Origin: Amoebophrya sp. A120
Taxonomy: Eukaryota; Protista; Dinoflagellata
Assembly: GCA_905178155.1 (NCBI GenBank)
Contig: CAJINV010000001.1
Location: 3,463,675 to 3,527,674, forward strand
Direction of reading: 5' to 3'
DNA: 64,000 nucleotides
This document shows, piece by piece, positions 1,301-57,939 of the stretch (positions within the stretch are counted from its first letter, which is position 1; every line of letters begins with the position of its first letter). The notes below the pieces were generated by a model, which worked only from the letters and a program-made list of their open reading frames with translations, did no database searches and had not been told where the DNA came from. A program made the translations under genes and the position numbers.

Positions 1301-3567
1301 ATGTCGTTACTTGCTCGTCCGCGTCCCGTCGTCGGAAGCAGTTCCTCTTCCTCCTCGTCCAGCAGCAATGCCCATGCCACGCCCAGCTACGCGTTGCACG
1401 CGAAGCAGCAGCGCAAGAAGCTTCTTCTCCAATCCCACTTCAACGCGGAGGATGGCACCCTTGCCGCGTTGGTGGAGAACAAAAACGCGCCGGTTTGTCC
1501 CATGTGCAAGGAAACGCTCCTACCGCGGAACGCGAAGCGACTCCCCTGCGGCTGCGGCTTCCACTTTGACTGCATCGACCCCTATCTGCGGCGGGAACTG
1601 CAGCGAAGCGCCAACGTACAGCCCGTGTGTCCCACGTGCAGGAAACCCGCGGTGGAAACCGTGTCGTCGATTATCGCCAAGAGAAAGCAGAAACTGTTAG
1701 ACGACCCAGGGAGCAAGCAGCAACGTATAGATAGCATACTGAACGAGGCAATGGCAGAAGTGAAGACCTGATTAGCCTGCTTCTGGATCCTTTGATAAAG
1801 TCATGTTCAGAAAGTAAGTAGGGGAAATCCCGTTTTTTAGCGGTGTCATTCGCTTCCGAAAAAAACAGCCATGTGTGTGTCGACACCTCGCGGAAGACTT
1901 TCGCACAACTTGCGCAAATATGGCCGCGGGGAGGACTATTATCAGGAGGTCGCCGACCTCTGGGGCGAAGACCAACACGAGGCAATTTCCGAGCTGCGAC
2001 GAAAAAGAGACGCGGCGTGCAAAGAAAAAAATGCAACGGTATTGTTTCATGAATAATTACAATTGCGTATTGCGACCTATGATGTATAGTGTTTCAGTGT
2101 ATTCGCTTTTCATTACCTTCGTTCTTTCGAACAATGGTCGCACTTTCTGTATAACATCATTTTCGAACCACTTATCAGTCCGCAGACGCGCTGTTCGAAG
2201 CTCGGGACGCTGAGATTCGTGACCGTTTCAGAGATTTCGTCGAAAACGGCGAGTATGAATTTGAATTACCAGAGTTCATGAGAATGCACCAAAGTAGCAA
2301 GCGGCTCACGGAAACGGATGCAGCTGGCGGTGCGGTCCCAGAGCCGGAAATGTCCACCACAGCTTCGGAGTCCGATGGCGTGATGAGTAGCAAGATGAAG
2401 TCCTTGCGTCTGTCCAGGAAGAATAAGATTAGTGGAGAAGTCGATGCGACAAAGCCAGCAACTGAAGACCAGGGGGCTAAAATTTCGTCCAAAGCAGGTC
2501 GCGAAAGCGAAAGCAGTGTACTACTCCCTACTTCCGCAGCTACTGACCACGACCGGATGACACCGCGGAGCAGCACAAATTTGAACGCTGCTAGTTCCGC
2601 AACCGCAGCTGCTACCCGGAGGACGAGTAAGATTCTTCCACTGAGCAAGCTTGAACAGAGGTCTCGAGTGAAGGTGCCGGGGTTGAAGCTGACGCCGCGG
2701 AACGAGGTGAGGAATCAAGATTTGTTACTGTACCGCAACCCAACGAGCATCTTGCGAAGGGAAGAAGCAGCTCCTTCCGCTGCGGATGGGAAGCAGGAAA
2801 AAGAAGATGGCGAATCGTCTCGAGTCCCTGATGTTGACTCTGGTTCTTGCAACAAGGAGAACGAGCCCCAGACCTACGTCGAGGAGGAAAACAGTTCCGC
2901 CGACGCAGAAGTTTTTCAACACCGCGAGAATACCAAAGCTGAGCCCCCTGACGCTCCGGATTCTCGATCGAACCTTTTGATGAATCGACGGGAAACCGTC
3001 GACGACGGGGTGGATGTTGATGATGAGCTTGCTCTTGTTGTTGCGCCTAATATTTTTAGCGATTTAGCAACAACACCGAGGGAAACGTCGAAGATCGACA
3101 GCAAAATGCGGGTAGCGATGAACGGAATGCGCAAACCCGCAAGGCGCAAAGGCGCTTTGTCGAAGATCCACGCTGCGATGGATATCGCGAAGGAAATCGA
3201 CGCGCAGCCCACACTATCCGTTGCAAATATGTCTGGGTCTGGAAACTTGTGATGCAAGTCCGTGAACAATAAGTGCTCTGTGATGCGCCGCCAAGCATGA
3301 CAAGGTTTTTCGTGCTTCCGTGCTGCGTATTTCGCATGAGAAATTGCGCCTCTGCATGACAGGCAAGAGGACCTCTTGGTGGCCACGCAATACAGACTGC
3401 AGAGTTACGCCAGACTAGCATGACAAACGTCGCAATCTACCAGACCCAGACATATTTGCATTTGATACACACTAAGTCTGACGGCGAATCGGAGGCTGAA
3501 CGAGGGCAGAGCTACGAAGAAGACGGGCAAGAAAACGGCGGGGGTGAAATTTGCGGTGGATGATTAG
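1301..3567 (+). CDS. RING-H2 finger protein, multi-exon
   Basis: CPMC...LPCGCGFHFDCI...CPTC motif in exon 1. GT-AG intron 2039-2185 joins in frame to ORF 2278. Removing the TIR element 3215-3472 gives a C-terminus ...QPTLSLTANRRLNEGRATKKTGKKTAGVKFAVDD*. The first intron (~1770-1888) looks non-canonical. Confidence 0.65.
3215..3467. mobile_element. TIR introner/MITE copy 1 (253 bp), TSD CACAC
   Basis: Starts TATCCGTTGCAAATATGTCTGGGTCTGG, ends CCAGACCCAGACATATTTGCATTTGATA; CACAC at 3210-3214 and 3468-3472. Confidence 0.92.
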
Positions 3568-4224
3568 TCACTACTTACACTGGCTTCAAAAAGAAGCGCA
3601 GCTGATTTTGTTTCAAACAGTGTCATGGCAAGTTGTGAAGATGAAAAGGAGTTTCTGATTGTAAAATGGGTATAGCGTAGTTCACGTTCTTGAAGGATTC
3701 ATTTCTTACTGTTTTTTGCCAGCGTCAGTCTCGAAAACCCAGATAAAGCGTGTTCCCCTTCATTGCAACTCAGAAAGTGGAAAAGATGAGATGCGCAGAA
3801 CTGAACAACGACGAGGCAGTGCAGCGTCTTCCCGTGTGCGTAAGTACCACAAGAAGTGTTGCAGCGTTAGAAGCAGAAGAAATACACATAGTAGACTAAA
3901 AAGCGAAAAAAACTTGATATCTTCCTGTACACTTTCACAAAGTAGCACACAGTACACTAGGCGTGATCAATAGTCGCTCGAAATGAGCAAGCACGAACTA
4001 CACAAAACGAGATAAAAACAGAGAATGACCCGGCTGCGTGCGCGTGACCGCCGTTGAACGAGGAGCGGACTGTAGCAAGAGTAAAGAATACCGGAAGTAA
4101 AGTTTCCCTTTGGGGCCGCAGGGGCTGCCACCCTTCTACACTACTCGGCACAACTTCGCCTCAACATCATTCTCTCCGGTGACCAGATAAGAAAAACACT
4201 TCCCCCACAAAAGTTCCCGCAGCC

Positions 4225-6693
4225 ATGGTTCGCCTTTCCGTCGCCTACGGCGAGAAGCACGAGCTGGAAAAGGAACACATCCTGGTCGCCTACCATGACA
4301 AAGTCTTCTACATACGAACCGTGGACTACTACCACACCACGAAGCCGACCAAGCAAAAGGTGCCCTTTCTGTGCGATGTGGGGAGCATGAAAAACACCTA
4401 TGGGAAGCTACCGAGGATGGACCAGCTGTCAGAAATACAGCACTTGATCAACGTATATTCAAAATTATGATAATTTTTGAAGATTAGTGTACTTGTGGCT
4501 TCCAGAAAAGTTATCTTTGTGATGCAAGTACACAGCGAGCAGCTTTTGGATTTGTCACACACTAAAAATGCATTTCATCGACTTCGCTCCTCCAGATTCC
4601 CGAGAAGAAGCTCCTGGTCACTGCGGATCAATCCGGCACGGTCGTCGTCACCGAAGGGCCGCCAAAGATGGATGTGATAAGAAGGGTCTGCACGGGCAGC
4701 GAAGTGTGCGCCATGGCCTACATAGAAAGTGCGGAGTTGAAGCCGTCACCGAAAAATCATGATTTCGGAATCCCGATGCTGGTGTACGCGTATAGGAGCA
4801 TATCAGGGGTTTATGGTATAGTAGAAAGTGTTGAACAAATTTCAAGATTAATTTTGTTGTGCCGGTCGTGGCGCATTTTGATTTTTAAGTACGACAGACA
4901 GTTACTCGCGCGCCATAAGAAGCGAGCAAAGGGTTGATTTTTAAGTACGAAGGAGCAGCAGCAGCGCGGAATGTGACTGCGTGTTGCACTGAGTGAATAC
5001 ATCGGGAGAAAGATCGAAAATTATCGCATACGAACAGGCGACGGCAAGAGCCGGATCCGATTCTGGAACTTTAAAGCGAACGAGATGCTGGCGGAAATCG
5101 ATCTCCCCTCGGAGTTGAACAACATTCTCTACTGTCAGGAGGTGAACGAGGTTCTCTGCTGTTGCCGAGCGGGCAAGATATGGAGAATTTCACCCGAACC
5201 GCTCAAGGGCAGGGGACCCGGGCAACCGACCCAGGAATTTCAGCTCGTGAAAAAAGACGTCAATCCTATGGACGTGGGGGAAATCGGCGATCACATCCTG
5301 AGGCTCTGGACATCAGGTGCTTAGATAGTACCACCTTCGTGTAGTTCTATTTGATGCGCGAGTACCAGAGGAGAAAGTTCTTGTCTTTGCTCAGTTCTTG
5401 CCACGATGAAAATTTGGAATTCAAACTTTCTTCACGCACACAACAGACGCCACCAAGCAAGCGGGTTGCCTTGCAGTTTCGCAGCAGGGTAAACTTAAAA
5501 TGTGGACGCTGGCGCCGGTGTTCGGTAGCTACTTGGAAGTCGACTGTCTCTACCACGTCGGGAACTGCACCAAAGCCGCCTTTCTGCACTACAAGAGAAC
5601 CAACCCATTATCGGTCACCGCGGAGGAGCAAAAGCGGTGCGAGCTCGAGGACGGGGACATGCTGATCATCGGCGGGGACGAACAAATTTCTTTCGTCAAC
5701 CCATACGACCTATCAAATGTAAAAATGTCTGGGTCTGGAAGGTTGGAACTTGTGATGCTAACTTTGGACTCTAAAAAATTCTGTATTGCATGACCAGCAA
5801 GAGGAGTCCGGTTTGTGCTACGCGTGGAGGGCATTTGTCATGCGAAATAAGCATCAGGAAGGCCTCTGAAAATCTGTGATGCTAGGGCTTCCATGGCAGA
5901 CATTATGCGTCATGCAAAAACAGCATAACAAATTTCGGATTCTTCCAGACCCAGACATTTTTACATTTGATACGACCTGGAAAAACCGTGCATGCGCCGC
6001 CTCGACTTCCGAGAAGGCGTCAGTTCGCTCACGCAGTGGAGGAACTTAGTGATGGTGGGGACGAAGTGCGGGTTGATAATCGGTATGACGAGCTAGTGGT
6101 GATGCAGATGTACTTAGTAGTTGCGTAGTATGATCCTTGTGGCTTTTTCTTCTAGGTGCAAAAATTGCAAGTAAGTAAGCTAACTGCCAAAAGAGCAGGA
6201 GGTCATCGTCCATTGTGAAGCAAAAACGCAGATGAAGTTGTTCCACCGTAAATGTTGAAAATCAGGCATCGACCCGTTTTCCGGGGTGCATCAGCTGAAG
6301 TTGCAGCTTGGGGTGAACGCGCCCATTGAGCAATTAGTCGGGGGCGTCGACGTTCTGCGGGCTGTGAACAGCCGGGGACGACTCGCAGTCTGGGCCTTGA
6401 AAGGCATCGACGTCGTCAGACTCGTGGAGCTCGAAGCAGAAAGCTGCGGCGTCTACAATGTTGGTACGGATGATCATATGTTCGGGCGGTGCGTGTTTAT
6501 TGTCACTAACTACCCAGAGCACGACGGAATTATGTATGATGTTGCCGTAGTTCATGGTAAATGCAAGAAAAAAAACGCGAAATATTAAACTCATCGTCCA
6601 GGTTCTTCTCAACTCCCCGCGGGCCACAATCACATCGGAGCGGGACCGCTAGAGGTCCACAGGCGCTTCGAAAAAGGACAAGACCGCTACTGA
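4225..6693 (+). CDS. WD40/beta-propeller-like protein, multi-exon
   Basis: Exon peptides LLVTADQSGTVVV, GDGKSRIRFWN, GKIWRI, GKLKMWT, GRLAVWAL resemble WD-repeat strands; 3' end approximate. Confidence 0.55.
5711..5972. mobile_element. TIR introner/MITE copy 2 (262 bp), TSD CGACC
   Basis: Perfect TIRs TATCAAATGTAAAAATGTCTGGGTCTGGAAG / CTTCCAGACCCAGACATTTTTACATTTGATA; CGACC at 5706-5710 and 5973-5977; removal gives NPYDLEKPCMRRLDF. Confidence 0.95.
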
Positions 6694-8488
6694 GCTGTTT
6701 TCGCTTGTTTTTTACAGTCAGGCGCTCCGATGATCACGAAAATTTACAATATGCAAAAAGTTAAAGTGATTTTGATGTCTAAACAGCGGGCTTCTTGTTG
6801 ACACTCGAATGAGCTCGCTTTACCTAACGCAAAAATGTTTGATGAATACGATCAATAGTCAGGATCCTATGAATCCGGATCCTGCTCTAGCTGAATATTT
6901 TCGAAATTAACTAAATTGGTTCAGAAAAATGCAGTTTGAGACGAAGACGCATCATTTCCACACCTTATGTATCCACTTATTGTAAGCGACTCTACGCCGG
7001 TTTCACATGAAAAATGCACTTTATTCCAACCTTTGTAACATGAAATCTTCTAGCACATCAATACGCCTCTCCCCCCCTACTAGGAACATGATCAAATGTG
7101 ATCTTCGCTGTGTATTATGAAAGCCGACTTCTGCTGTTTTGATGACCCATGTGTACAATGAGATTTTGTGTATGATATAAGAACAAGAAATCGGATAATT
7201 CTCTCTATCATGCAGGGCGCGAGGTAGTTGTAGCTTTAGAATTTACGAAAGAAAAACCTACCTGCAAAATAAAGCCGGCGCATCGGGCAGAGAAGATAAA
7301 GTAATTCTCAACCTGCTATGCCCGGCCAACTACCTCGACCTGCTGAAAGCTTTTTGGAACGCCCCGCGCTGAGAACGTCGAGAAAGAAAAGGAACCTCGA
7401 CGGAATCTGTTCCTCTCCACTTCGCGTTTCTCGCGGTTGTGTTGTATGAATGTATTCGCGGCGTGGTGTGGTCCAGGATGCGACTCCGTACACCACGTCG
7501 CATTCGTGCTACCCCGCGTGAAGATGATGATCCCAGCGATCATCACTCCGCAGCTTCTAGGCGATGTAAATAAAAAATGCTGAAATGTCGATGTCGAGCT
7601 GGTTTTTATCAGGTTTTCGCAAAGAGCACACGGTCGGTCTATTAAATGTTGCACACGGGTTGATGTTGATGTTGAAAGCAAGGTGCTTCAAAAAAAGGAA
7701 GATCAAATTGCTCGCGTGAAGACGGTGATCTTTTGCCAACATTTGGGAGAGACCAAGGAAAAATAAACGCATAAATGCCTAAGTACCGATATTAACACCG
7801 AGGGAAGTAGAGTGCTTTTTCGGGGTGACGCTTGTGACGCTTTTGATCTTCGGCTTTCCATTCGATGATTGAATCTCTTGCGTGCATGCATGTTGCCACA
7901 ACACTTCTTCTGAACAGCACTCGTGAACAAAAATCGAAAACGGTCGTTTTCGGCGAGCTAGATTTTCTTTTTTGAAGTAACTACCAGTACAAGCATGAAC
8001 AAACAATTTGCACGAAAAGATGTCGTGGTTTGTTTCGCGCAAAGTGGTGCGTTGTGGTTTTTAGAAATTATAGCAACATTCGAGTTTTTTCGCGGATTAC
8101 AACTTCACAACAGCAGGCACCTCTCAACGACGAGAAAGAAATATTTCTACCCCGAATGAAAGACTATTCTACCCAAATTTCCCTTCTCTTTACGACAAAG
8201 ATACAACATATGTTTAGCCATGAACAAAAGTTTTTTTCGCTGAATAGTACTTCGCAAATATGGAACTGGTCTTCATTCCTCGGTGTGCTCCTTCAAAGCT
8301 GCTGCACTCCTTCCTGAAGGGTTCTTCCACTCGCCGGCGTGGACCGTTCTTGGGACGATAAGGGTTTCGACGAAGAAGTGGTGCGACTTTATTTGGACGT
8401 CAGCACACGCACATAGGAAAGAAATCGCCAAATTACTTACACGCGCCGCCGGCACATCACCTTCACCACCTTTTCTTTCCTTTCCATC

Positions 8489-11400
8489 ATGTCGCTGGAC
8501 CCGACGGCGCCGAAATCGAGTGAGCAGCCCGCCGCACCACCCCCGGTACAGAAGATCGCCCCGATCTTCGGCAAAGCCGGCTCTTCCAGCGCAGCGGTGG
8601 CCGCCCAACAGCAAAGCTCGGGTTCCAATAACGTAGCGCAACCGGCGGAGCCACGGCGTCCGCATCACCAGCATCATCATGGGCGCAAGGGAGGTGGACA
8701 TCATCACCGGCGTAACAAGCACCACCATGGGAACAACAACCATGGTCACGGGCCACGTCACGGCCACGGTCACCATCGTAACCACCACAAAACCGCTGCG
8801 CAAAAGGAGAAGGAAAAGGAGCGCGAGGAGCGACGGAAAGCGGCAATCGAAAAACGGGAGAAGGAAGAGGCGGCCAAATCGCTGGTGTATTTTCAGCTCG
8901 TCGCGGAGGTGGGATCGAAACAGTCCGGGCGGGAGCAGGTGACTTTCGAGGGGCCAGAAGTAAACATCGAGGTGCTCCGGGAGCTGATCGCGGAAAAAAA
9001 GAAGATGCTAGCCGTAGATGTGGACATTTTGCACAAGGACGACAACCAACCGTACGGAAACCTGTTTTTTCATCATGTTTTGCTTCTCTAGTACAACACA
9101 TGGAATTTTTTTAGGAATAGCGAGTACAGTCAAGAATTCGTTGCAATGTAAATACAGAACTTCTGCTGCAGCTTCGAGTGAGATTTTTTACCGAATGTTG
9201 ATAAATCAATGGAAGTAGTTTGATTCGATAAAGATATTGATCCTCTGTTTGTGCGATCACTGCGGCATTATCATTAAGTTCTACTGACTTCCCTCTGACG
9301 ATGGATGATTGAAACGGGCCGTCGCTGCGGTTCCAGTCAATCGACCCTCTCCGCGTGCGTTCTTCATCCGCCTTCTTCTTTCAGTTTCAACTTTGTGAGA
9401 ATGAACTGAACTAAATACTTACAAGCAACATACTGCTCTGCTCTGTATTTTACACTCTGCACTTTTTTGTATACGATGCTGCGACGTGGGAAGCCGGATC
9501 TGGCGTTTGCTTGGGCATACTGACCCAGCGTTCTCGTCGACGGGCAAGGAATCAATTGCTGCGACTACTGCCGAACCCACTGCCTCCAGGGACAAGCAAT
9601 TCGGCCGATCATTTTGTGACCAGCTGCTGATCTTCCGCGTGCACAGGACCTATTCGAACCGGGTGGCGGGAAGTAGGAGTCAGTGCGGGCTGTCACTGCA
9701 GTATCTAAAGAAAGACAAGTGTGGTCCCCATTCCGGCTGGAACTCTCTTTTAGTGTGGTTCTTGCAAAAAAGCCAGCTTTCCAGCTAGCTATTCCCTATT
9801 CCAAAAACACCATCAGCAAACATTTCTCAGACAGGAGCGAGCCAAAACAAGCTCTTGTCAGGGACCGGACTGCTTTCGCTTGATTTACCGATTCTGGTAG
9901 AAATACTGCGAAAGTTGTTCTTAGATCATCAGTGGTACCAGATCTGGCTATCAGTCGCGGGAGCTGATCTACAACACGATACTGACTATAGATACAGTAC
10001 CACGACGCACATCCAAAGTCAGTCCATTGTCGGTTAGTGATCCGTGCTATCACACTTTGGCTACACGTGATCTGTGCTTGTACCTGGTGCTTCCTGGTCT
10101 GTGCAACTACTCGGTGGTGCATTCGCGTGACAGGACGCCAACGCATAGGCATAAACGTGACAGTCGTCCGTTTCGTTGACTAGACAGCAAATGGTGAATC
10201 GTCCTCTCTTCTAAAAATCGTTTCCTGTTTTGCTTGTCTTCGTATGTCAGATGCGAAATCTTGTGCATTCTTTTCACGAGGTCGTAGTGTTTTTTTGAAA
10301 AACCTACCGCAGAAAAGTACAAGAAACTACGTACAGGATTTTTTGCATTCGTCGCGTTGACGATGTGGCTCTCGTTGTGAGCCGTTTGCAATTTGCACTT
10401 ATGCACGGGAGGAGAGCCTGTATCGCACACCGTCACGCATCTTAAATGATTCGCAAATGAACTGACTCTCTTTTTCCCTTGCCGTTGGTTTGGTGTTGAC
10501 GTTTTTTGTATTGAAGGGCGCATGTTTATGCACATCTTTCACTTTCTTACACCTACTTCACGACATTCTCACATTTTTCAAATTGAGCAAGAAAGCAAAA
10601 TGCAAAAATGCTGGGTACAGGGGAAAAATGGTTCCGCGCGTGCAGCTGACTGCCAGCGCGCTGACGGCCAGATACGGATCTCTGAAGAAAAAACATCACT
10701 ATCTTCACTCCAGCATACTAAAAGGGGAACGCAACAACTCAACCACTTGATATAGTCGCTGCAATTTAATATTAGGGCAGGGCTCCACAACTCTTGGTCT
10801 TGGGGCCGCCCCTGCGTGCGCGTCCTCCTGCATCGAACTGCGGCAAGAAATCCATCCCATTTATTTTGCGACACTGCCCGCCTCCCATCCGCGAAATGTT
10901 TGAAAACAAAACAGGTACCCCAACGACATTAATATACCCTCGAAAACCTTTGTATGGGTGAAGCGACGACCGACTTTGAAGTCCCGAATTCAGATCATCG
11001 AGTCCGAGGCGGCTTCACGGGACTACAAGCCAACCCCCCAGTCGCCCTCCTCGGGCGAAGAAGAACCGAGTTTCCAGCAGGACAAGCAGTTCCTGCCCGA
11101 GCAGTGGCCCGCGGAGTTTTTGTGCCCGCGGTGCGAACAGCCGCTCGAAAATGCGGTCTTTCAGCGCTGCTGTCGCTCCATCGTCTGCGAGAAATGCGGC
11201 GTCGAAGATCCGAACGGGAACTGCCTCCTGTGCAAGGACATGTGGGAGGGCGCGGTGCCAGACATTATGATGCGAGGAGTGGTACAGATTGTGGTTATAT
11301 TCTTTCTTTGATGATGATTTGCGTTTATAGTCGATACTGATTGCCGCGCCCACATGTTGCATTGATTATCGTTCGTTGTATGCAATGAGAATGAACCACG

Positions 11401-24600: not shown

Positions 24601-24714
24601 CATTTCTGCATGGACTGCGAAAACAAAATGTACGAGGACATCAAGGACAACTTTGCGGAGAAAATGCACCTGATGATGAACAAGAGCAACACATCAAAAC
24701 GCAAGGCTGATTAG
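18607..24714 (+). CDS. Large (~2000 aa) S/T/A-rich low-complexity protein with coiled coil and C-terminal CxxC...CxxC
   Basis: ORFs 18607-22122 and 22252-24714 joined in frame by GT-AG intron 22105-22251; true start uncertain. Confidence 0.65.
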
Positions 24715-43608: not shown

Positions 43609-43609
43609 G

Positions 43610-43624
43610 AGTTATGAGCCCAAC
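43610..43624 (+). promoter_or_regulatory. Primer binding site, half-tRNA(iMet) type
   Basis: AGTTATGAGCCCAAC immediately after the 5' LTR; resembles the GGTTATGRGCCC PBS of copia/Ty5/Osser. Confidence 0.8.
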
Positions 43625-43718
43625 ATCTTAAGCTTGTAAGATTTCAAGTACAATTTACACCCATAAAATATCTGTAAGTAGAACTACAGCACCCCTATCC
43701 CCGCACGAAGAGAAAGGA

Positions 43719-45671: not shown

Positions 45672-48600
45672 CTATCCCACTCCACGCACGACGAGTACGC
45701 CGAATTTAGGCCGTACAGCTATGATTATGCTAATTCGCCGCTAGAAATTAATATTGATAGTGAAGACCTCAGCCAAGCCATTGCATGCATAATCGCACGC
45801 ATGTCGCCCAGTTTCAGTGGAAAGACGATTTTGCTTTACAAGTTTCGGGACGAAGATACCAAGCGAAAATTGCGTATTATCGAGTGTATGGTCGGTGAAG
45901 CGATTCCAATTCTCGATGGCAATCGCGCGCAGGAGTTTGTTGATGGCGGAAACTTTAGATGCTTTGCCGCTTCGCAAACTGATAAACGGGCTCGAGAAAT
46001 GTCAAGTGCAATTTCGCAAGTTTTTGACGTTTCTGTGAATCCGGGTCCTCCTAAAAAAGATTCCTCTCCCCCCTCGCCGGCATCGGTCGATGAGAATCTG
46101 AACAAAAGTTCAGGACCATCGAAAGATCCGACGGCAGCACGCAAGAAGAAAAAGAAAAAGGGGAAGAAAGTTCTGAAGAGGGTCAAGCCTGCCCGAAAGT
46201 ATCGGAAAGGCGTTGACACCACGCTGCGCCAACCCAAGGCGGGAATCTCGTATGAGAAAATCTGCCAACTTTCTTCGCGCCTGGTCTTCCCGACATTTCA
46301 GAAACTCTGGGAGGTTGTGAAGCAGATTGATTCCTCGCCAAAGGCTCGAAAAATGGTGATTGGTTTCTGCAAACACAATCTGAACCGTCTGAAAAATTAT
46401 GCTTTTCCGCATCACACCACTGGGGGCGTGGATGGCTTGAAGTTGTCTGATTTTACATCTTCGGATACATTTTTTCCTTTGGGGAAAAAGTACGCAGCAC
46501 TACACGCGATGAATTTGCATAGTCGTGCGAGCTACACAAAGACTTTGAAGCATGTGCCCAAAGCTTCGGATGCAGTTGAATTCTTAGAAAAGGTCAGGGG
46601 ACTCGGATTGCTAGGCCGGGCCCTCTTGTGCGACCAGGGTAAGGAATTTGACAACAGCCAAGTCAGATCGTATTTGCAGCGCCATGGGATTGCTCTTTAC
46701 CTAATTCCAAAAAGTAGTTGGGTCAATGGTTCGATCGAAAGACGCCATCGCACTTTTAGAGCGGTGCTAGAAAAGCTGTATTACATTTTTGGCCAGAGTG
46801 CGTCCTTGGTTCCACTTCTTGTGGAACAAGCGACCAATGCGGTGAACATGACCCCAACTCGGGCCTTGGATGGGTTGTGCCCATACCAAGCCCAATGGGC
46901 TTTGAATCCCTACGCGCTGGAGCCTGACGATCCTGAGTCTGCTACTCTGCAGCAGGCTGAGTTGATGGTCACTAAGGATGCCACCTGTGAGGCATACAAT
47001 GCGAGATGCAAGGCCAGGGCCGAAATTGAATCTCTGAAACAGGATAAGCAATTTATCTCTAAGATGAAGAAGCTTACCGAGATGCAGAGAAATTTTTATC
47101 CTCAAGCGGATAAGATTGAAGTTGATTCTTTGGTAGATATTTTCGACAAAAACTCGCATGCCTGGCTGGGACCTGCTAAGGCTATTTACAAGCAGACTAA
47201 TGCGAACTCCGTTACGTTTGTTGTAGATCACGATGGGAATTTTAAGCGAGTGCACGCGTCGCATGTGCGACAGCATCTGACTTTTGATCAGATGAATTTT
47301 CCTCCATCGCTCCTCCGTGTTGTCAGAAAAACACACGGCGAAAAAGTACCGAAAGAAGTTGACACATCAGAGCTGGTTCCAGTTAAAGTCAAATTTGAGT
47401 CGGCGTCGAAAGATTTCCAGTACGCGAAAAAGAATGCCAAAAAGCTGAAGGTGAAACGCAGGAAAGGGCGAAAGATATTCACTTCTTGCGCCCCGTTACT
47501 GATTTCCCCTGCGAGTTCTGAGATAGATTCATCCATGGCGCCTGTGATGCATCCTTCCCAGTCTCCAAAATTAGATGATGAGCTTTTGGGCGACGACGCT
47601 TTAGGCGGTTCCGCGGAGATCGGCGGGAATCTTGGCTCGAATTCCAATTCTACAAAGAATGCGGAAGTCGAATCCCATGCCCGACCGTCAGCGCCTAAGT
47701 TACGACTCACAAAAGATTACGCCAGAGATGTCTACCGTAATCTTGAAAAGAAAGAAAGAGAAAAGCTGAGACGGATAGCGGCCAATGCTGGCCCCGTCCG
47801 GGGAGCATGGAGAGAACGCAATGAAGCCATTGCTGAAATTCGTGAAGTTATTGACTCGCAGCCCATCTATGAACACATGAAAGAGCAGCAGAGGCAGAAA
47901 GTTGCTCAAGATTTGTTTCACCAAGCAAAAATCGATCCGCTAGGGCCGATTGAAAATGATGAGTCTTGCAGCTTCGTCATTCCGTTTTTGTGTCCCGATT
48001 GGGAGGAGCACGAAGTTGCTGTTTGTTTCAAAGCAACTATTGCTTCTGCCCCTGTTAAGGAGTCGGAAGTGGAATCGCAAGCAGATTGGCAGCAAGCCAT
48101 TACGAAAGAAGTTAATGCGCATTCGCATGTTTTCAGAGTTGCTAGGCAAAAAGAGGTCGATGAATGGGTCGCGGAAGGCAATAGATTTATTCCTTGCCGC
48201 ATGATCCTCAGTGTGAAAAGAGACCAACGCAAAAAGGCTCGAATCGTGTGCCTCGGTTACATGGACTATGTTTCTAGCCACGATGAGAAATTCGCTGAAG
48301 TGCCAGACCTATGCATTTTGCGTTTGCTTGTCGCTATTGCATGCCAGAATCCAAATATTTGCATGCTGCCCGCGGATGCCCGCAATGCATTTTTGCAGTC
48401 GCGCTACCCTGTTAAAGTTTTAGTTGCTCTCGACGAGCGTCTTCAAAAACTTTTAGGCTACAAGTATGCCGTTGTTTTGTATGCGCTCAACGGTTTGCGG
48501 TTGTCTCCCAAGGCGTGGGCTGTACACCGAGACCAAAAGTTGAGTGAGCATGGCTGGGCTAGGAATCCCTGTGAGCCAACGCTTTGGCATAGACAGGATG

Positions 48601-49616
48601 TAATTTTGGTAGTGTTTGTAGACAACTTTTGGCTCTTCGGACCGCGCGCCGCTTGTGAGCAAGCGCGAAAAGATTTGGAAGAACCTCTGCGACTTTTTCT
48701 TGAAGATGTCAAAGACACTGCAACGCATCGCACTTACGATTTGTTAGGCATTGAATTGATTCAAGATAAGAAAACTGGCGATGTAACTCTATCGCAGGAC
48801 GCCTATGTGACGAAGATTTTAGAGCGGTTCGGCGGGAATATCAGTGGCAAAGCTTTGGCATGCCCTATGATAACCGCTCCAGACCCTTCGTCCGAAGAAA
48901 AGCCTGAACTTGTGAAACTCAAGCAGGAATACTGTGGCTCTTTGAATTATCTTGCTACTAGCACTCGTATGGACATCGTAGTAGCACTAAAGTTCTGTGC
49001 TAAGGCTAAGGCCACGGAAGAAACTATCACCGCGCTAAAACGCATCTTCCGATACCTACGCACGAGGAGAGTGCTGGTTTACCGAAATCGCCAGGAAACG
49101 CTCAAAGGGAAACTGACACTGAGTGTATGGACGGACAGCGATTTTGGAGCACAAGAAGGCCGCCAATCTATCAGTGGAATCGTAGTGAACGTTTGTGGAT
49201 GCCCGATATTCTGGAGGGCAATTACGCAGTCGAGTGTGGCAACGTCGGTGACAGAAGCGGAAATTGTTTCTATGACTGATGGGGCTACGACTGTGTTGCG
49301 ATTTTACTATGTCATGAACACACTACAAAACTGGCTTGGTAACTACTTTCCTATTCCGAAGATTTCTTTACCGATTTCTCTGAAGTGTGACAATCAGGGA
49401 GGTCAAAAATATGCTTTGAATCGCACTGGTACTTCAGGACGCCTGAAGCATTTAGATGTACGCGTTTGTTGTATACGCGACGTAGTGGCGAGATCACTAC
49501 TGCTACCGATATATTTTGAAAGTGCCAAAAACAAGTCCAACGGATTAACGAAGATCACCACTGGATTTGAACACTCTTCGTTTTGTGATATGAGTGGAAT
49601 TGTTGAACTTCCATAA
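45672..49616 (+). CDS. pol: Integrase-reverse transcriptase-RNase H of copia element (same frame as gag-PR; first ATG 45801)
   Basis: CDQGKEF and NGSIERRHRT (integrase); KARIVCLGY, DARNAFLQ, ALNGLRLSPKAW (RT); WTDSDFG, SVTEAE, CDNQG, KHLDVR (RNase H). Confidence 0.93.
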   Translation, partial: LSHSTHDEYAEFRPYSYDYANSPLEINIDSEDLSQAIACIIARMSPSFSGKTILLYKFRDEDTKRKLRIIECMVGEAIPILDGNRAQEFVDGGNFRCFAASQTDKRAREMSSAISQVFDVSVNPGPPKKDSSPPSPASVDENLNKSSGPSKDPTAARKKKKKKGKKVLKRVKPARKYRKGVDTTLRQPKAGISYEKICQLSSRLVFPTFQKLWEVVKQIDSSPKARKMVIGFCKHNLNRLKNYAFPHHTTGGVDGLKLSDFTSSDTFFPLGKKYAALHAMNLHSRASYTKTLKHVPKASDAVEFLEKVRGLGLLGRALLCDQGKEFDNSQVRSYLQRHGIALYLIPKSSWVNGSIERRHRTFRAVLEKLYYIFGQSASLVPLLVEQATNAVNMTPTRALDGLCPYQAQWALNPYALEPDDPESATLQQAELMVTKDATCEAYNARCKARAEIESLKQDKQFISKMKKLTEMQRNFYPQADKIEVDSLVDIFDKNSHAWLGPAKAIYKQTNANSVTFVVDHDGNFKRVHASHVRQHLTFDQMNFPPSLLRVVRKTHGEKVPKEVDTSELVPVKVKFESASKDFQYAKKNAKKLKVKRRKGRKIFTSCAPLLISPASSEIDSSMAPVMHPSQSPKLDDELLGDDALGGSAEIGGNLGSNSNSTKNAEVESHARPSAPKLRLTKDYARDVYRNLEKKEREKLRRIAANAGPVRGAWRERNEAIAEIREVIDSQPIYEHMKEQQRQKVAQDLFHQAKIDPLGPIENDESCSFVIPFLCPDWEEHEVAVCFKATIASAPVKESEVESQADWQQAITKEVNAHSHVFRVARQKEVDEWVAEGNRFIPCRMILSVKRDQRKKARIVCLGYMDYVSSHDEKFAEVPDLCILRLLVAIACQNPNICMLPADARNAFLQSRYPVKVLVALDERLQKLLGYKYAVVLYALNGLRLSPKAWAVHRDQKLSEHGWARNPCEPTLWHRQDVILVVFVDNFWLFGPRAACEQARKDLEEPLRLFLEDVKDTATHRTYDLLGIELIQDKKTGDVTLSQDAYVTKILERFGGNISGKALACPMITAPDPSSEEKPELVKLKQEYCGSLNYLATSTRMDIVVALKFCAKAKATEETITALKRIFRYLRTRRVLVYRNRQETLKGKLTLSVWTDSDFGAQEGRQSISGIVVNVCGCPIFWRAITQSSVATSVTEAEIVSMTDGATTVLRFYYVMNTLQNWLGNYFPIPKISLPISLKCDNQGGQKYALNRTGTSGRLKHLDVRVCCIRDVVARSLLLPIYFESAKNKSNGLTKITTGFEHSSFCDMSGIVELP

Positions 49617-49903
49617 AAATTTCAGGTGCTAAGACGAGAACCGGGCTGAGCTTTTCGATCGTGGGTCGTCAGGGGTTTGACGAAAACACGATGAGAATCT
49701 AGCATCTTGGATGCTAAAACCGGTTAAAAGTCAGCATATGGGGGGCAGCTCGATTAAGCCCCATAAATGCGTAATAACATCGGTTGAAGCCCTTATTTGT
49801 TTGTAGGCTTATGCGAAAAGTGTTTTTCGATTTTCCTACTGCTTTAGGCTTTGAGAAGAAAAGTTTTTACGATTTGAAAATGGATTGATATTCGATTGGA
49901 CTT

Positions 49904-49917
49904 GGAGCAGGGGAGGC
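49904..49917 (+). promoter_or_regulatory. Polypurine tract
   Basis: GGAGCAGGGGAGGC directly before the 3' LTR. Confidence 0.8.
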
Positions 49918-50219
49918 TATTGCAATGCACTCAGCACATGCCCCAAGATCCAATACGAACGATCCAAAGTAGATAGCACGATAGTGAAAGATGGAATTGT
50001 GATGGTGATCACATACTGAAGATGGAGATGATGATGAGGATAAGATGCATGGTATGCACCTCATGACACGAACAGGAGTAGCCTCAATGGCTAAAGATTA
50101 AGAGCATAAAGATACCCCCACGCTAACCACGTAGGACCTTAAGTAGGTCAATAAACATTTTGTATTTTGTTCTACCTGGATCGTATTCTTTGTTGGGTCT
50201 TGGTCTTGTTAGGTCCACA
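49918..50219 (+). repeat. 3' LTR
   Basis: Near-identical direct repeat of 43307-43608. Confidence 0.95.
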
Positions 50220-50806: not shown

Positions 50807-52073
50807 TGTATCCAAGAAAAAAAGTGTGTTAGTGTTGCATATTTACTTGTTTTTTTGAGCAGTCGTAACAAGTTCAAGGGAGAAGCCCAAAGCTGATAGA
50901 GCCCAAGTAGGTGCTACTCCCCACTGATACAGAAATGCCATGGGCTGGAGTTAGATCCGCGCTCTTGTGTTGATCCGAGACGCACGAGGGTTGGTATGTT
51001 GTATTGGTGGGAGAGTGGTGCCGGGTCGGTGCGCTTCAAGCACGGATCCGAGTGGAAAACATGTGGCGGCGACTGCGTCGCTGCAAAAGTTTTTCACATC
51101 CCACCCTTTATAGGCCTGTAGGAGATTTGCTTACACACTCCTACTTGTTGGCCCTGTCGTCTGACCCTGACTAGGCACGTGTCCGTGCGTCCTGGGCAGT
51201 CGTTCCCACCCATGCGTCTTCGACGGGAGGATAGTTTACAGCACATCAAGCCCCTTCAGGGCATCAATGCTGCTCCCATCTTTGGTCGGCCCGTTGAGCC
51301 ACCAGCAGTTTGCCATCGCATGACTACTGAGAGCGACTCTTCCGGGGCGTGCGTTCGCGCCTCCGCATCTCTTTCCATGGGCCTGGACAGCCCATTGACA
51401 GCGATGTCGGCACCTACTTGGTCCTAGTCAGGATTCAGTCTGACAGATTTGGGATTTGCACCTTGATTATTGTTTGTGTAATGCATAAAATGCCAACACA
51501 ATCACAATCAGTCACGCCGGTCATCGTATCAGACAACCAAAGTAAGTGGCCTCTTTCCATGCGTGCGTTCACGTACTAGCCATGCATGTGCATCTGCATG
51601 ACCATGAGCATGGCAGTACGTGTGCAGTCATGCAGAGCAATTGTGGCATTCTGTTAGTCCACGTTAAGTACTTAAGTACACTAACACATTTCGTGTTTGT
51701 TTCCTGGATAGTGTGATCGGATGGTGCAATATCATTAAAATACATTCTCAGAAACTCCTGCCCTTATACTCGAACCATGTTTTAGTTAGCACTGATCGAT
51801 TTATTGTCACTGCATGAAAGCATAAGCACGGGGAGGGTATCATCTTGAAGAAGGCCACTGCTGTGCCAGTCCTGCAAGCGCGGAGCTCTGCTTCGGAATC
51901 TAAGGTGTCTTCGCCGTGGGACAAATAAGATTGACAGGTGCAGGTGGCGCTATAGTGCGAACGCGGAATAACAATAAAGTTGTGCCGTTGCCTCCTTGCA
52001 TCAACGTGCAAGAATTCTAGATTCAGGCGGTATGATATCCAGCTTCGCTTTCGCACACAATATTTGAGTATGT
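50807..52073. mobile_element. ~1.27 kb non-coding insertion, possible solo-LTR-like element
   Basis: Interrupts the second ectodomain repeat, while the first repeat is continuous here; flanked by AGAGG (50802-50806, 52074-52078); starts TG; shares a motif with the copia LTR. Confidence 0.5.
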
Positions 52074-54991
52074 AGAGGGCGGGGAGCGGTTTATTTTTTC
52101 GCGATTTTTGGCCGACGATTGTGAGTGGCGGCGCGTACTGTCCTGGAAATGGTCTGCAAGATTCCACAGTCTCTGAGTTTAGCGCCAAGCACCCAACAAT
52201 GCCTGCCTTCGTCGCATTTAATGGTAGGTCCACCATTTTCGACGGATTGGGTCCTACATACGGCACTGCGTGTGCAGACAAGGCAAATTTCAATGGAACG
52301 TACACTCCTACATACGGAGACTTCCCGTCTTGGCTCAGCAAACAATACAACGTGTTCAGTTTCGTCACGGCCTTGAATCCGCCACCGAGCTACGCACCCG
52401 CCAAGGCACCAGACGTCACGAACGAAATTGCAATGTTTCACACGAACGGCCAGCTCTCGAGGCGTTCGTCGGTTGCTCGGTGTGCTGCTGACGAAGACAT
52501 GGTAGGCGGTGGCTGCGAACTCAACTGGGGAACCTTCGGCGGTGATGTCGACAAAAATTGTCTCTTGGCAGAGAGCCTGCCGGAAAATGACAGTTCCGGT
52601 GGACACGCCTGGAGGTGCACGTACGTGTGCACGGATGCTGTTACCGACGCCGCCATGCCTAACATCACTGCCACGGTCGTTTGCTTCGCTTCCAGCTTCT
52701 TTGACGTTTTCTTAGGGAGTTCTCGTCCGACATTGCGTCATTCGACCGACAAGGCCCGGTATGTGGTTTCCGGTAGTAACAAATTCGGACCCCAGGTAGA
52801 CGTCGCGTGCGCAGCGGGAGAGGTTCTGATTGCGGCGGGATGTGCTTACTGGAATAACGCTGCGCCGCAATACACAGGTCACTACAAAAAGCTGCGTGGC
52901 TGGCGAAACAAAACAAACGGATTAGACTGTGATCCTGGCGTGTGCCCTACTAACATCAAGCCTTTCAGCCACACTGCTGAAGAGTTGCCCGAATTGCTTG
53001 GGGTCGACCGACACGCTGACATGAAGACCGCAACATGCGGCGCGAGAGTATTTAAGCACGACACGAGCCTTCTCGAGAGCTTCGGAGCAGTCGCGCTATG
53101 CCTCGCGCCACCAGAGGGGCCGACTTGCGCCAGTGGATACAAATCAGGCGCCCTCGCTCATCCTGTGTGCCCATCGGGTTACCACAACTTTGACGTGGCA
53201 GATTGCGTAGCAGCAGGGAGCCGCAACATCTGCAGCCCAACGAACAACTACTGCGACGCGGACAAGTGCAAAAAAGTATGCTGTAACCCTGCAGCAACGA
53301 CCACTCCCCCTCCCGCAGTCAACGACACAGACTCGTCAGCAAGTGAAGACATCGCCGCCAGTGCGGGCGTGGGCAACCCACTGCTCTGGGTTGGAGTCGG
53401 TGGGGGAGTCGCCGTGCTGGCTCTTCTGTCGTGGTTCCTCTCCAGCCAAGCACGCGCGCACCCCATCTTCACCCAGGGGGGTAGTGGATATTACGGCGGC
53501 TACAACCAGAACGGCGGCTACGGCGACAACTACGGTTACGGTTCGGCGGGAACTCCTGCTTGGGAAGTAGCTCAACAAAATTACCAATACGGATACGGTG
53601 GGGCGGCTCCTGGAGGGGGACAGTATCAGCAAAGCTACCAGAATTACGGTGCCTACAACGGGCAAGAATACGCGCAGTACTAAAAGCGCTACTACTGATT
53701 TGGTTTTGCGATTTCTTGGCACCACTTGGCTTCTTTTCGCAAGCGCGGCGCGGATGTTGTTCGCCATAGAAGTGAATGAGCCAAGTTCATGCCAGAGGCG
53801 GGCGGAGTTTTTGGCTCTATGCGCCTGCCAAACACGAACACCGTTGGTCGTTACTGTGAAGCTATTTTTTTTTTTACTCTGACAAACAAACGTAACCAGA
53901 CCAAAAATGTTCTGGCGTCTTAGCTCTTGAGGAATACTATCAAAAATAGTCACGCAACCGTATGATCGAGATTCAAATGCGGACGATTATCGGACTTGTG
54001 ACGGGATGAAAAACAAAAGGCAAAAAATTATTAGAGCTAAAGAAATGACAGCTTTCCATCTTCGCAGTTGTCTCTCGCGATCGCGGAGAGGTGGAGCAAT
54101 ATTTATACATGTAAGTACGTCCTTTCTTGAACAAGTACGGAAGTTGTAGTCGGTTTCTCACCTCAGATTTCTGTCGAATGTTCCGCACAATTGAAAATCA
54201 TGAAAGAAAAAAGCGTCGATCGGGATCGAGATCCAAAATATCGGACGTGCGTTGAGATCACGTCTAGTTGTTTGACAATCGAGAAGTAGATCTGTTGCGA
54301 AGTATGGACACGTAGTTTTTATTGGGGAGGACAGATTAATTAATTTTCATTCTGATGCTGAATCTGAAATGCGAGTGCCACTGATTTCTCTTCGCTCCAA
54401 AAAGGACCCCAAGCAGAGAAGCGCAGTAGCGTGTCCCCTTGAGAAGTATTGCTTTTTTATTGACGAGGAGAAAAAAACTCGTGTATTATTTAGATGTACT
54501 TGAGTACCCGATCCCGATCATGATGAATCATTGCCGCCATCCCATCCGTACTAGTCATCTTGAGGTGACATGGTAGATCAAAAAGGAAATGCGAACAAAG
54601 AGCAAGTGAGTAGTCGGAATACATCCTCAAGAACTCTTTCTCTCTCTCTTTCGGGGACACACGCTCAATGACTCGTTGCGTGAATAATTATTCATCGTTC
54701 GTGAATCTGAAAGGTGTACACTATCAATGAATCCATCTTCCGCTGCACAGACCATTTCCTTGAAGAACTCTGGAATCAATATTTATTGACAGTAACAACT
54801 GAAAGTTCCGAAGGAGAAAACCTAGGGTTTTTTGCAAGTAGTTGTCCCAGTAAGATATATGGTTTAAAGTATTTCTAACTGCTGCAAGTTCTACTTCATT
54901 ATCACATTGCGCAACTAGCGACCAAGTACAACACTTACTTATCTTTCTACCGAACTGCATCGCAAGCGACCCAAACAAGTGAAACCAAGTC

Positions 54992-57939
54992 ATGACGGAC
55001 GACTGGGAGGATGATGATTTCGAAAAGCCCGTGAAGGCGGAGGGCGCCAGCGACGACGTATCAAATGTAAAAATGTCTGGGTCTGGAAGAGTCATGCTGT
55101 TTTTGCATGACGCACAAGGTCTGGCATGGAAGCTCTAGCGTCACAGGTTTCGCGAAGCTTCCGCAATGCCTAATCCGCATGACAGATCCCCCATTTTGGT
55201 GACAGAAAGTGGGCTACTTTTGCTACCTATGCATGAGAGATTTTTCTGTGTTTTGAAATGCGCATCACAAGTTGCATTCTTCCAGACCCAGACATTTTTA
55301 CATTTGGTACGACGATGATTGGGACAAATCGGAAGACGAAGATGCATATCAAATGCAAAAATGTCTGGGTCTGGAAGAGTCAAACTTGTGATGCTGCATT
55401 TGGATGCTAAAAAAACCTGTATTGCATGACCAGCAAGAGGATTCAAATTTGGCTACGCGGAGGGGGCATTTGTCATGCTGGATGCGCATAGATAAGCGCT
55501 CAAAAAATCTGTGATGCTATGGCATACATCACAGACATCATGGATCATGGAAAATGTGCATGACAAAGCTGTGCTCTTCCAGACCCAGACATTTTTGCAT
55601 TTGATAATGCACCGAAAAAGGCGAATTGGGACGACGATGACGAGGACGATTGGGACAAGGATACCACAAAACCTGTGGAAGAGCCCGTCGCAAAACCGGC
55701 ACCCGCTCCGAAGGGGCCCGCCGCGAAGTCAAAAGAGAAAGCCGAGGTATACATAGTCATTTTGCAAGAAAGGTTTCCGTTTGGTCGCATTTAGTAGGTG
55801 AATATGAAAATGCGTTTACTACAGCTGTGAGCTCCGTGTAATTTCTTGCGTGCAAGTCGGAATGGATATGATTCAGATTCTCTCGCGGAACAAACAAAAA
55901 GATCAACTTTGTACTACACGCAAAGAACACAAGAAACTCTCAATCAGATTTACGTCCCACTAGACGACCCTATTGCGGAGAAGGCACGGCTACGGCGGCT
56001 CCAAGAGGCGGCAGACGCGGTATGCATTGCAAAAGTGTCTGGGTCTGGAAGGATGCAACTTGTCATGCTAAGTCTGGATAGTGCAATATTTGTATTGCAT
56101 GATTACCAAAAGGTGTCCACGTTTGAACAAGTTTAGCGGTAGTTTGTCATGCAGGATAGACATGCTAGAGACTTCGCAGAACCTGTTATGCTAGCTCCTG
56201 CATTGCAGACCTCATGGGGCATGGAAAATATGCATGACAGGGTTGTATGTAGTGAGGTCACCGAACGGTTCTAACCAGGGAGGTTTTTTGACATATACCC
56301 TGAAAAACGACCGGCAGTTTTCAAGCGTCCGAAAGCGTTTTTTGACATAAAAAATTTCCAATTATTAAGCTGGCGGGGCTTTGAAGTCAAACAAGCCCGG
56401 TCGAAAACTACCGATTCGCACTTGATAAAACGACCCAGGGGAACCGGCAAAAGGGGCGCCCTTCTGACGCGCCCACCGCCTTGGTTTCTGGCGGTTTGGG
56501 CCGCCCAAAAAGTGGCGCGCAAAAAACTCGCCCAAAATCAGAACAGCGAAACAGCTTGGCACGGCCGCGATTTCGGAGCATTTTGGGCGGCCGCGAAAGC
56601 GGCCGCCTTTTCGCCGGTTCCAGAGCCTGGGAAGCTTCGCAAAAAGCGCCGGAGGGAAAGATAAAAACGCGAAAAAGAAAAAGCGCCCCGGACGCGCAAA
56701 GCCAATCCGCATGCTATGGGCCCGATTTTTCTTCGCTTTTTGGGCGCCCCCCGTGGCGCCCGGATCGGCTCCATAGCATGGGGGCTGGCTTTCGGAAAGG
56801 AATTTCGGAGATTTGCCAAAAGCTGCGACGTTTATCGAGCGGCCGCAACACCGTGCGGCCTAACGTTACTCACGGCGGTATGGCGAGCCCAGAAAAAGCA
56901 AGGCCGCGGCCAAGGCGATGGCCGGCAAGAAAACGCCCACGACCTCACTACCTCCGCCCCGGCGGCTATATTTGGTATTCTTCCAGACCCAGACATATTT
57001 GCAGTTCATACGCGGCCCTGGCGGACGATTTGTTCGCGGAGTTCACGAGGAAGGACTCGTCCCCGTCGAAGGCTGTGACGAGCGGCACCACCGCCGCGGC
57101 GTCGTCCAGTTCCCCCGCGAAAAAGCAGAAGCAGGCCGAGAAACAGGTGGTCAAGGACGAATGGGACGACTTTACGCTGGACACCGCCGACAAGGTGGTG
57201 GAGGTAATGGCCAAGATCCAGGGCAAGGTAGAGGAGGTGGAGAAGAAGGCATACATGAAAGGATGCATCAACAATCTACTGACCAAGCTGCTCGTCTGTG
57301 TCGCGGACAAAATCTCCCTCAGGGAAGCACAGGATCTAGAGAAGAAAGTGAAGGAAATTATCCGCGTCAGGGTACTCTTTTATTGGTGTATTTTTTCATC
57401 AACAATGAAGCATTTTCCGCGGCCCTTGGTGAATACATAATCAACTTCTGTTTGGTTTGTAAAATTTCTGATTCTCTTTGTTGCGACAATATCTAAACTT
57501 TCTTTTAGATGGCGTTTCTGAAAAAAACAACAAACTTGACGACGAAAACAGAAAGTGGAGCAGCAGACGGCACAAGCAGCGAAGACAAAAATAAATGCAG
57601 TGAATAAGAACACGAAGTTCGATGTGGCCGGCGCGCTTGACGAGCGATACGGCTATGACGACGAAGACTGGTACATGGCATAATCAGATAATCACTTCAA
57701 AGAACCCAATTTGGTTATTCACTATTGTGTTTTGTTGCTTCTACTGTTTCAATTCACGATTGATCATGCATTCTCAGCAATCTACTGCGTCTGCTAACTT
57801 GCAATTACAAATCAACAGGGACGAAGATGAGGAGTGGGAGGGCGAAGGAGGCTACTACGACGAAAGCGGCGCCTGGGTCGAAGGGTACTACAAGGAAGAC
57901 GGAACCTGGGTTACCACGAAAACCACGCCGGCGGCCTAG
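54992..57939 (+). CDS. EIF3J: Translation initiation factor eIF3 subunit j (Hcr1)
   Basis: MTDDWEDDDF...DDWD...NWDDDD acidic Trp motifs; LDDPIAEKARLRRLQEAADAALADDLF reconstituted after removing three TIR elements and conventional introns. Confidence 0.88.
55059..55309. mobile_element. TIR introner/MITE copy 5 (251 bp), TSD CGACG
   Basis: Same TIRs; CGACG at 55054-55058 and 55310-55314; interior partly reverse-complementary to copy 2. Confidence 0.94.
55347..55606. mobile_element. TIR introner/MITE copy 6 (260 bp), TSD ATGCA
   Basis: Same TIRs; ATGCA at 55342-55346 and 55607-55611; interior co-oriented with copy 2. Confidence 0.94.
56021..57010. mobile_element. TIR introner/MITE copy 7 (990 bp including nested insert), TSD CGCGG
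   Basis: Diverged TIRs TATGCATTGCAAAAGTGTCTGGGTCTGGAAG / CTTCCAGACCCAGACATATTTGCAGTTCATA; CGCGG at 56016-56020 and 57011-57015. Confidence 0.92.
56249..56978. mobile_element. Nested ~730 bp non-autonomous element with asymmetric inverted repeats and a 3' hairpin (Helentron/Helitron2-like)
   Basis: GTAGTGAGGTC 56249-56259 and GACCTCACTAC 56941-56951, then hairpin CCGCC-CC-GGCGG; removal restores the host GTTGTAT^TCTTCCAGACC and a 260-bp length. Confidence 0.7.

Follow-up and report, generated by a model that had tools for sequence, protein, structure and literature searches.

MITE-like introner elements in exons of Amoebophrya sp. A120 are probably removed from RNA together with one copy of their target-site duplication

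We have analysed a stretch of 64,000 nucleotides from the genome of the dinoflagellate Amoebophrya sp. A120 (contig CAJINV010000001.1, positions 3,463,675 to 3,527,674; the window hereafter), in which seven elements with terminal inverted repeats (TIRs), E1 to E7, interrupt protein-coding sequence. They are non-autonomous TIR transposons sitting in exons, resembling miniature inverted-repeat transposable elements (MITEs), and almost certainly belong to the introner elements already published for this organism. In the cell they are very probably removed at the RNA level. The reading that we favour for this step, cut-and-ligate removal from the pre-mRNA by a route separate from GT-AG recognition, is a tentative one, to which we give slightly less than an even chance. 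Since both the class of element and the genome are published, the observation as such is already known, and what matters is how tens of thousands of introns are removed base-exactly without GT-AG.

The window was scanned with the TIR core, and left and right ends were paired into elements. Seven left and seven right ends gave seven elements, a single extra match with three mismatches being due to chance. Each element has TIRs of about 30 bp and an exact 5-bp target-site duplication (TSD) directly outside them, and all seven TSDs are different; the chance expectation for seven exact 5-mers is about 1e-21. No strand is assigned to the elements themselves. E1 (3215–3467, 253 bp, TSD CACAC at 3210–3214 and 3468–3472) lies near the end of a plus-strand open reading frame (ORF) of no known family, and E2 (5711–5972, 262 bp, TSD CGACC) within a plus-strand exon. 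E3 (31879–32146, 268 bp, TSD CCGCG), whose right end reads TGC and not TAT, and E4 (32260–32512, 253 bp, TSD GTTCC) share a gene encoding multiple PDZ domains, while E5 (55059–55309, 251 bp, TSD CGACG), E6 (55347–55606, 260 bp, TSD ATGCA) and E7 (56021–57010, 990 bp, TSD CGCGG) all interrupt the gene for eIF3j (PF08597). E1 to E6, at 251–268 bp, are 63–80% identical in pairwise comparison; E7 owes its 990 bp to a nested repeat of about 725 bp. The starts, TIRs and distinct TSDs are therefore as described in an earlier note on this DNA, which had been made from the sequence alone; the size of about 250–270 bp given there holds for six of the elements and not for E7. That note had also found no element in intergenic DNA. 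No further copy of the E1–E7 family occurs elsewhere in the window, but the significance of this is slight, as plus-strand ORFs of at least 120 codons cover 65% of the window and the location of all seven elements inside ORFs corresponds to p of about 0.05.

Farhat et al. (2021) described 29,850 introner elements in A120, with inverted repeats that start with TAT, continue with seven looser bases and then at least three A residues, and with direct repeats of 3–5 nt (PMC7789003), an account repeated in a 2024 review (PMC11453091). The A120 TIR introner families listed by Gozashti et al. (2025) agree in size, and most of their ends are non-canonical (PMC12130899). The likeness to these published elements extends to the organism, the TAT-N7-AAA ends, the combination of inverted and short direct repeats, the length of about 250 bp, the high copy number, the RNA support and the mixture with GT-AG introns (PMC7789003, PMC12130899). 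Here the motif fits 12 of the 14 TIR ends, the other two reading TGC and TAC; a 5-bp direct repeat flanks all seven members of the repeated family, their ends are not GT-AG, and E5 to E7 are absent from the transcript contig. The earlier note's statement that such elements are reported in Amoebophrya thus proved apt, the window being part of that very genome. Differences concern the TIR, which is about 30 bp here and 8–20 nt in the published description, and the duplication, which is strictly 5 bp and abuts the TIR whereas the published direct repeats vary in length and place (PMC7789003). In a comparison that covered 19 of the 58 A120 rows of one supplement, fam12 (331 copies, 252–260 bp, TIR 33) and fam100 (256–261 bp, TIR 30) fitted by size only (PMC12130899); the TIR motif was absent as text from the supplement text searched, and no numbered published family was assigned. 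The earlier note further held that the mechanism of removal is unresolved in the literature, and this is borne out as far as our searches reach: with subscription journals mostly outside their range, they returned no paper resolving the removal chemistry of Amoebophrya introners.

The evidence for precise removal is strongest in the eIF3j gene (54992–57900, plus strand), whose coding exons lie at 54992–55058, 55315–55346, 55612–55746, 55948–56020, 57016–57371, 57552–57670 and from 57819 onward. Three ordinary GT-AG introns (55747–55947, 57372–57551 and 57671–57818, plus strand) accompany E5 to E7, so that both intron types occur in one transcript. The exon downstream of E7 is 100% identical over 118 residues to the Amoebophrya sp. 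A120 protein P0001, and when one TSD is removed with each element the spliced model equals P0001 residue for residue over 300 amino acids. E5, E6 and E7 each shift the reading frame, and E7 splits the conserved stretch LQEAADA|ALADDLF; three eIF3j orthologues (45–55% identity) all align without a gap across the E7 junction.

Four sequencing runs (X1, X4, X9 and X10) were mapped onto positions 54000–62000. X4 was taken as RNA, since it lacks the GT-AG introns and ends in poly(A), and X1 as DNA from its behaviour, with a flank depth of 41–55; the raw RNA run X10 gave 20 reads, all on repeats. The transcript evidence covers E5 to E7 and comes from a single assembled contig, X4 contig 9 (1685 nt, depth 124), which ends in poly(A), lacks the three GT-AG introns and aligns in pieces without mismatch. 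Between window positions 55052 and 57010 it has 240 letters, corresponding to the removal of one GT-AG intron, E5 to E7 and 15 further bases. The prediction is 255 letters if no extra bases are removed, 243 if 12 are and 237 if 18 are, so that the observed value fits only 15; the next gap (119 of 119) and the total length (1685 of 1685) are also as predicted. There are 27 ways of dividing the 15 bases that keep the frame, and P0001 is produced only by 5+5+5. As the earlier note had anticipated for transcripts, the elements are missing while the net length of one TSD copy is kept, and its interpretation of the elements as transposon-derived introns agrees with both the spliced contig and the A120 protein.

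These lengths also bear on the idea that the greater part of each element is taken out by ordinary splicing, with cryptic GT-AG sites close by. Frame-compatible GT..AG pairs are indeed available around every element at a distance of up to 30 bases, in many cases inside the TIRs, yet no listed pair has the length observed for E5 to E7, the discrepancies ranging from 12 to 51 bases where the contig fits exactly. The use of cryptic sites, which the earlier note had named as an outcome that would undo its proposal, can thus be set aside for these three elements. For E1 and for E4 a single shifted GT-AG pair would give the same length, and the RNA evidence, which covers E5 to E7, does not bear on it. 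In addition, any other removal length breaks invariant motifs in the RPB1 gene considered below, and we regard cryptic splicing as very improbable. Sliding the boundaries within the TSD likewise gives a GT..AG register in none of the seven elements on the plus (coding) strand, as the earlier note had stated; its statement does not extend to the minus strand, where E2 has such a register (5710–5976). Around E2 the plus strand is the more open, with at least 100 codons to the left and 39 to the right, compared with 38 and 40 on the minus strand.

A second possibility is that the elements are excised from DNA, in the manner of ciliate internal eliminated sequences (IESs) or TBE transposons, in the stage or nucleus that is transcribed. 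A TIR element that leaves one duplication behind has the geometry of precise transposon excision, and TA..TA ends superficially recall those of IESs. The DNA contigs of X1, however, cross from flank into TIR at depths of 39.9, 43.3 and 43.7, without a break, against flanks of 41–55. Junctions at single-copy depth indicate that the filled site is the main form of the DNA, so that excision from DNA is unlikely, allowing for the fact that contigs drop rare variants. Neither the empty genomic sites that the earlier note had suggested looking for nor its alternative of IES-like excision is therefore favoured by these data. The elements are also contained in an estuary metagenome and in another assembly; moreover, we know of no split between germline and somatic nuclei in Amoebophrya, and excised copies would be inherited as losses. 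Overall, excision from DNA appears improbable. The depth of X1 over the elements themselves reaches 456,000, a rough ratio that would correspond to 8,000–10,000 related copies. In the estuary metagenome (X9) element sequence was present with next to no host flank, and the element family therefore likely occurs in another wild lineage.

All seven elements contain in-frame stops, in agreement with the earlier note, which had further claimed that deletion of each element with one TSD restores the frame in all cases. For E5 to E7 the frame is indeed at stake. The combined length of element and TSD is a multiple of three in E1 (258), E2 (267), E3 (273) and E4 (258), so that here only the stops have to be relieved. 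E1 is the weakest case, because beyond the junction its frame stays open for only 31 codons and a rival frame, running for 30, is equally open. Removal of E3 and E4, each with one TSD, yields a single open frame of 2,597 codons in the multi-PDZ gene (stop-to-stop frame 30729–39053, plus strand). When the E3 junction was aligned to the PDZ repeats of the gene itself, the different removal lengths could not be distinguished. The surroundings, from 30729 to 40836, form a very long multi-PDZ region.

To extend the comparison beyond the window, metagenome contigs were searched with the TIR pattern, giving at least 146 stretches (about 420 estimated). Among the 80 matches listed all are on JACKZZ01 contigs, which may be of A120 or of a sister lineage and none of which overlaps the window flanks; viral contigs gave no match to the pattern. 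The other loci (L001–L142) contain 170 TIR pairs, 138 of them with an exact 5-bp TSD and 118 distinct TSDs among these. High copy number joins the TIRs, the fixed-length TSD, the short length and the lack of coding sequence as a property shared with MITEs. The three longest TIR-to-TIR spans have no 5-bp TSD, and each probably represents two broken copies. Of the ends of elements with an exact TSD, 275 of 276 carry TA, which is partly fixed by how the elements were found. The element flanks are exon-like in base composition, 4% of 136 lying under 45% GC compared with 32% of the background.

The preference for five bases recurs in these loci. In one family, 240 bases were open on both sides in 28 of 103 cases when five bases were removed with the element, compared with 11–13 for three, four, six or seven (paired p 4e-6 to 3e-4); a measure of total length over all families gave a weak result (82 of 253 for five, 67–69 for the others). 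A generic scan for TAY-N7-AAA ends with a 5-bp TSD recovered 272 elements, whose interiors fall into at least seven types, and none in two shuffles, the end motif being part of the pattern. These interior families (size classes of about 110, 150, 210, 260, 280 and 320 bp) share only the first 15 or so bases and the 5-bp TSD. The shared ends suggest either one mobiliser or one removal code. The two TSD copies differ by one base in 43 of 316 cases, the mismatches being distributed over the five positions, in sense, as 6, 5, 3, 3 and 8; since all positions are affected, none is shown to need identity. Such mismatches allow existing RNA reads to reveal the true cut register.

Locus L054 contains a gene for RPB1 (393–10906) in which six TAT..ATA elements of two interior families are mixed with GT-AG introns. 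A seventh element of this locus lies beyond the aligned part and gives no signal. For all six elements within aligned RPB1, removal with five extra bases scores best among two to eight, and it restores the invariant motifs DTAVKT|SETGYIQRRL and IAA|QSVGEPATQMTLNTF, which we take to belong to the bridge helix and to a region adjacent to the trigger loop. In 11 of 12 aligned pieces, the exons around the six insertions share 73–100% identity with the nearest RPB1, and the nearest RPB1 among the matches listed (proteins of 441–2000 residues searched) is 74% identical to the RPB1 of L054. That five bases are best at all six insertions argues against a pure artefact of reverse transcription or dead genes.

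Such an artefact, a 'falsitron', would arise if reverse transcriptase skipped across a hairpin between direct repeats, the genes concerned being dead or backed by paralogues. The anatomy matches, in that falsitrons combine a hairpin with direct repeats of 3–16 nt and non-canonical ends and can reach 70% of cDNA reads (PMC8240250; the anatomy also in PMC13149111). Furthermore, the terms 'RT-PCR' and 'lariat' are absent from the main text of PMC7789003, and our literature search found no paper joining Amoebophrya, direct RNA, nanopore and introns. The unspliced form, however, cannot code for protein: stops are present in all seven elements, E5 to E7 shift the frame, and RPB1 likewise has stops and frameshifts. 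Skipping cannot account for the production of eIF3j and RPB1, the conservation of the RPB1 exon pieces is that of a live gene, and thousands of exonic copies, with their exon-like flanks, cannot all be lethal. We therefore consider it improbable that the removal is an artefact as a whole, but skipping may inflate the spliced share.

In RNA, the elements could be recognized by the spliceosome or by a separate activity. In the favoured cut-and-ligate route the TIR stem is predicted to pair (pairing probability 0.82–1.0; folding z −7.3 to −8.9 for E1 to E6), which would bring the two 5-bp duplications together. An activity might then read the paired TAT-N7-AAA ends and cut at a set number of bases from them, so that a single duplication copy stays behind. 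A ruler measured from the end of the stem could set the cut, as suggested by the lack of fixed bases at both intron ends; no register fixes bases at both, because in every register five arbitrary bases occupy one end or the other, or are shared between the two. The enzyme would presumably combine an endonuclease with a ligase, as suspected for the nonconventional introns of euglenids, and in the Euglena signature N3CDG...CH'GN5-6 a paired motif already serves as the origin of such a ruler (PMC12501133). The signal appears to reside in the ends, since E7 is removed despite its 725-bp insert, the interior families differ, the ends are symmetric and both orientations occur (among 59 elements, 24 same, 18 opposite and 17 unclear).

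The alternative, suggested in PMC7789003, is that a remodelled U2-type spliceosome removes the elements from RNA, the TIR stem and a new factor replacing U1 and the GT-AG check. Almost the full set of spliceosomal proteins is retained in A120 (83 of 89 found), U1 small nuclear RNA was not detected, and 15% of canonical introns also have inverted and direct repeats (PMC7789003); TIR/TSD introns of Fritillaria, handled by the spliceosome, provide a precedent (PMC11282704). On the other hand, introners spliced by the U2 machinery co-opt a GT/GC..AG register from the TSD, and no plus-strand GT-AG register is available at any of the seven elements in the window. In the other loci (n=123) a GT-AG register was found in 7 cases against 3.6% expected (p=0.22) and an AG end in 64 against 47% expected (p=0.32); counted over 125, the registers comprise 7 GT-AG and 3 GC-AG, near chance. 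Neither GT, AG nor GT-AG is thus significantly enriched, and no register has fixed bases at both ends. A remodelled spliceosome would also have to accept elements in both orientations, while the ordinary GT-AG introns of the same eIF3j transcript keep ordinary ends. We regard this explanation as a real possibility of lesser probability than a separate endonuclease-ligase, and the odds of a separate enzyme over a remodelled spliceosome as a little better than even.

Several observations count against a dedicated cut-and-ligate activity, beginning with the spliceosomal protein complement and the Fritillaria precedent just mentioned. On the 5′ side the GT dinucleotide shows a slight surplus (64 of 123, where 44% is expected; p=0.07), which speaks for a remodelled spliceosome. 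The RNA support consists of one assembled contig read through the coordinates of its pieces, among which the short middle exons are not listed; the 15 junction rows listed, of 331, all come from DNA repeats. This contig and the annotation of P0001 may have been derived from shared data. All transcript data are presumably based on cDNA, in which a hairpin with a direct repeat is a known signature of reverse transcriptase skipping (PMC8240250). Selection on RNA pairing was not apparent from G-U and A-C differences, which number 55 and 42 on the sense strand (p=0.22) and 47 and 68 under the other strand call (p=0.06), with the opposite sign; sense–antisense folding energy likewise gave no sign of selection at the RNA level. 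Finally, TIR positions 4, 5 and 7 are often unpaired (0.59, 0.74 and 0.51) while the terminal three bases stay, and recognition of the terminal sequence may be no less important than the stem.

The closest parallels to the proposed cut-and-ligate route are the nonconventional introns of euglenids, which have paired TIR ends, repeats resembling TSDs and no GT-AG, occur alongside spliceosomal introns and have their cut placed by a paired motif with a spacer of fixed length (PMC11282704, PMC12501133). They differ in their CAG/CTG motif with a purine rule, where the A120 ends are TAT..ATA with no CAG/CTG at a fixed spacer, and in belonging to an unrelated lineage (PMC12501133). Circular products and mutational tests are available in Euglena (PMC11282704, PMC12501133), whereas the present elements are known from sequence and assembled contigs. 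The non-canonical introns of Fritillaria borealis and the introners of Micromonas and Aureococcus similarly combine MITE origin, TIRs, a TSD and seamless removal, but they are spliceosomal and have preferred dinucleotides or a splice site derived from the TSD (PMC11282704), in contrast to the arbitrary TSDs found here (118 distinct among 138).

A broader proposal is that Amoebophrya possesses a second, non-spliceosomal system of mRNA splicing that reads one transposon end code, TAT-N7-AAA, in either orientation, with any interior and at any 5-bp target. We hold this to be conceivable but on the doubtful side. Such a system could possibly have been built on a domesticated integrase-like transposase or on a tRNA-type endonuclease with a ligase. 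If it exists, every insertion of a whole transposon superfamily would be harmless, including those that hit the RNA polymerase II bridge helix. A separate enzyme would represent a new chemistry of mRNA splicing and would provide an intron, scarless and independent of sequence, that might serve as a tool.

The mobiliser of the elements was sought among ORFs of the long copies. No transposase domain was detected by Pfam in three ORFs of E7 or in 18 ORFs of the long TIR-to-TIR spans (0.63 Mb seen), so that the transposase-coding copies for which the earlier note had proposed to search were not met with there; Farhat et al. also report finding none in A120 (PMC7789003). The TA..TA (TAY..RTA) termini, as well as the TIR length of about 30 bp, resemble those of IS3EU/GingerRoot elements, which differ in that the TSD of IS3EU is 6 bp (PMC10045372, PMC12730594). 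Membership in IS3EU was rejected on account of the 5-bp TSD, and with no transposase found the likeness is only a lead to the mobiliser. A TSD of 5 bp falls inside the range shown by Ginger2, the IS2 subgroup and the integrases belonging to elements with long terminal repeats (LTRs) (PMC10045372, PMC12730594). Gozashti et al. described an A120 TIR family with homology to Copia-like integrase (PMC12130899), by analogy with which a Copia-like integrase is a plausible mobiliser of E1 to E7.

The repeat nested in E7 (56246–56970, no strand assigned) is about 725 bp long. Its inverted repeat, 11 bp in length, is subterminal, a short GC hairpin precedes its end, and there is no clear TSD. This layout recalls non-autonomous Helitron/Helentron elements, as a resemblance only (PMC4344730). 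Depth corresponds to approximately 250–550 copies, and one copy, 79% identical, lies in an RPB1 intron of L054 at about 1949–2710. A search of positions 30000–64000 against Rfam gave no match. The window also contains a young Copia-type LTR retrotransposon (43307–50219) with integrase and RVT_2 domains, TA..CA ends, a TSD of TGTGT and LTRs at 43307–43608 and 49918–50219 that are 99% identical. It sits in an ORF starting at 41421, and its length together with the 5-bp TSD is a multiple of three. An eighth element of a different interior family (50809–51710, 902 bp), with TAT..ATA ends and a decayed duplication (AGGTG/GTGTG), lies in the same gene copy, which may be a pseudogene; a paralogue at 52076–53683 has an unbroken frame of 535 codons. 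Nearly all long ORFs of the window are on the plus strand, like the unidirectional gene clusters described for Amoebophrya.

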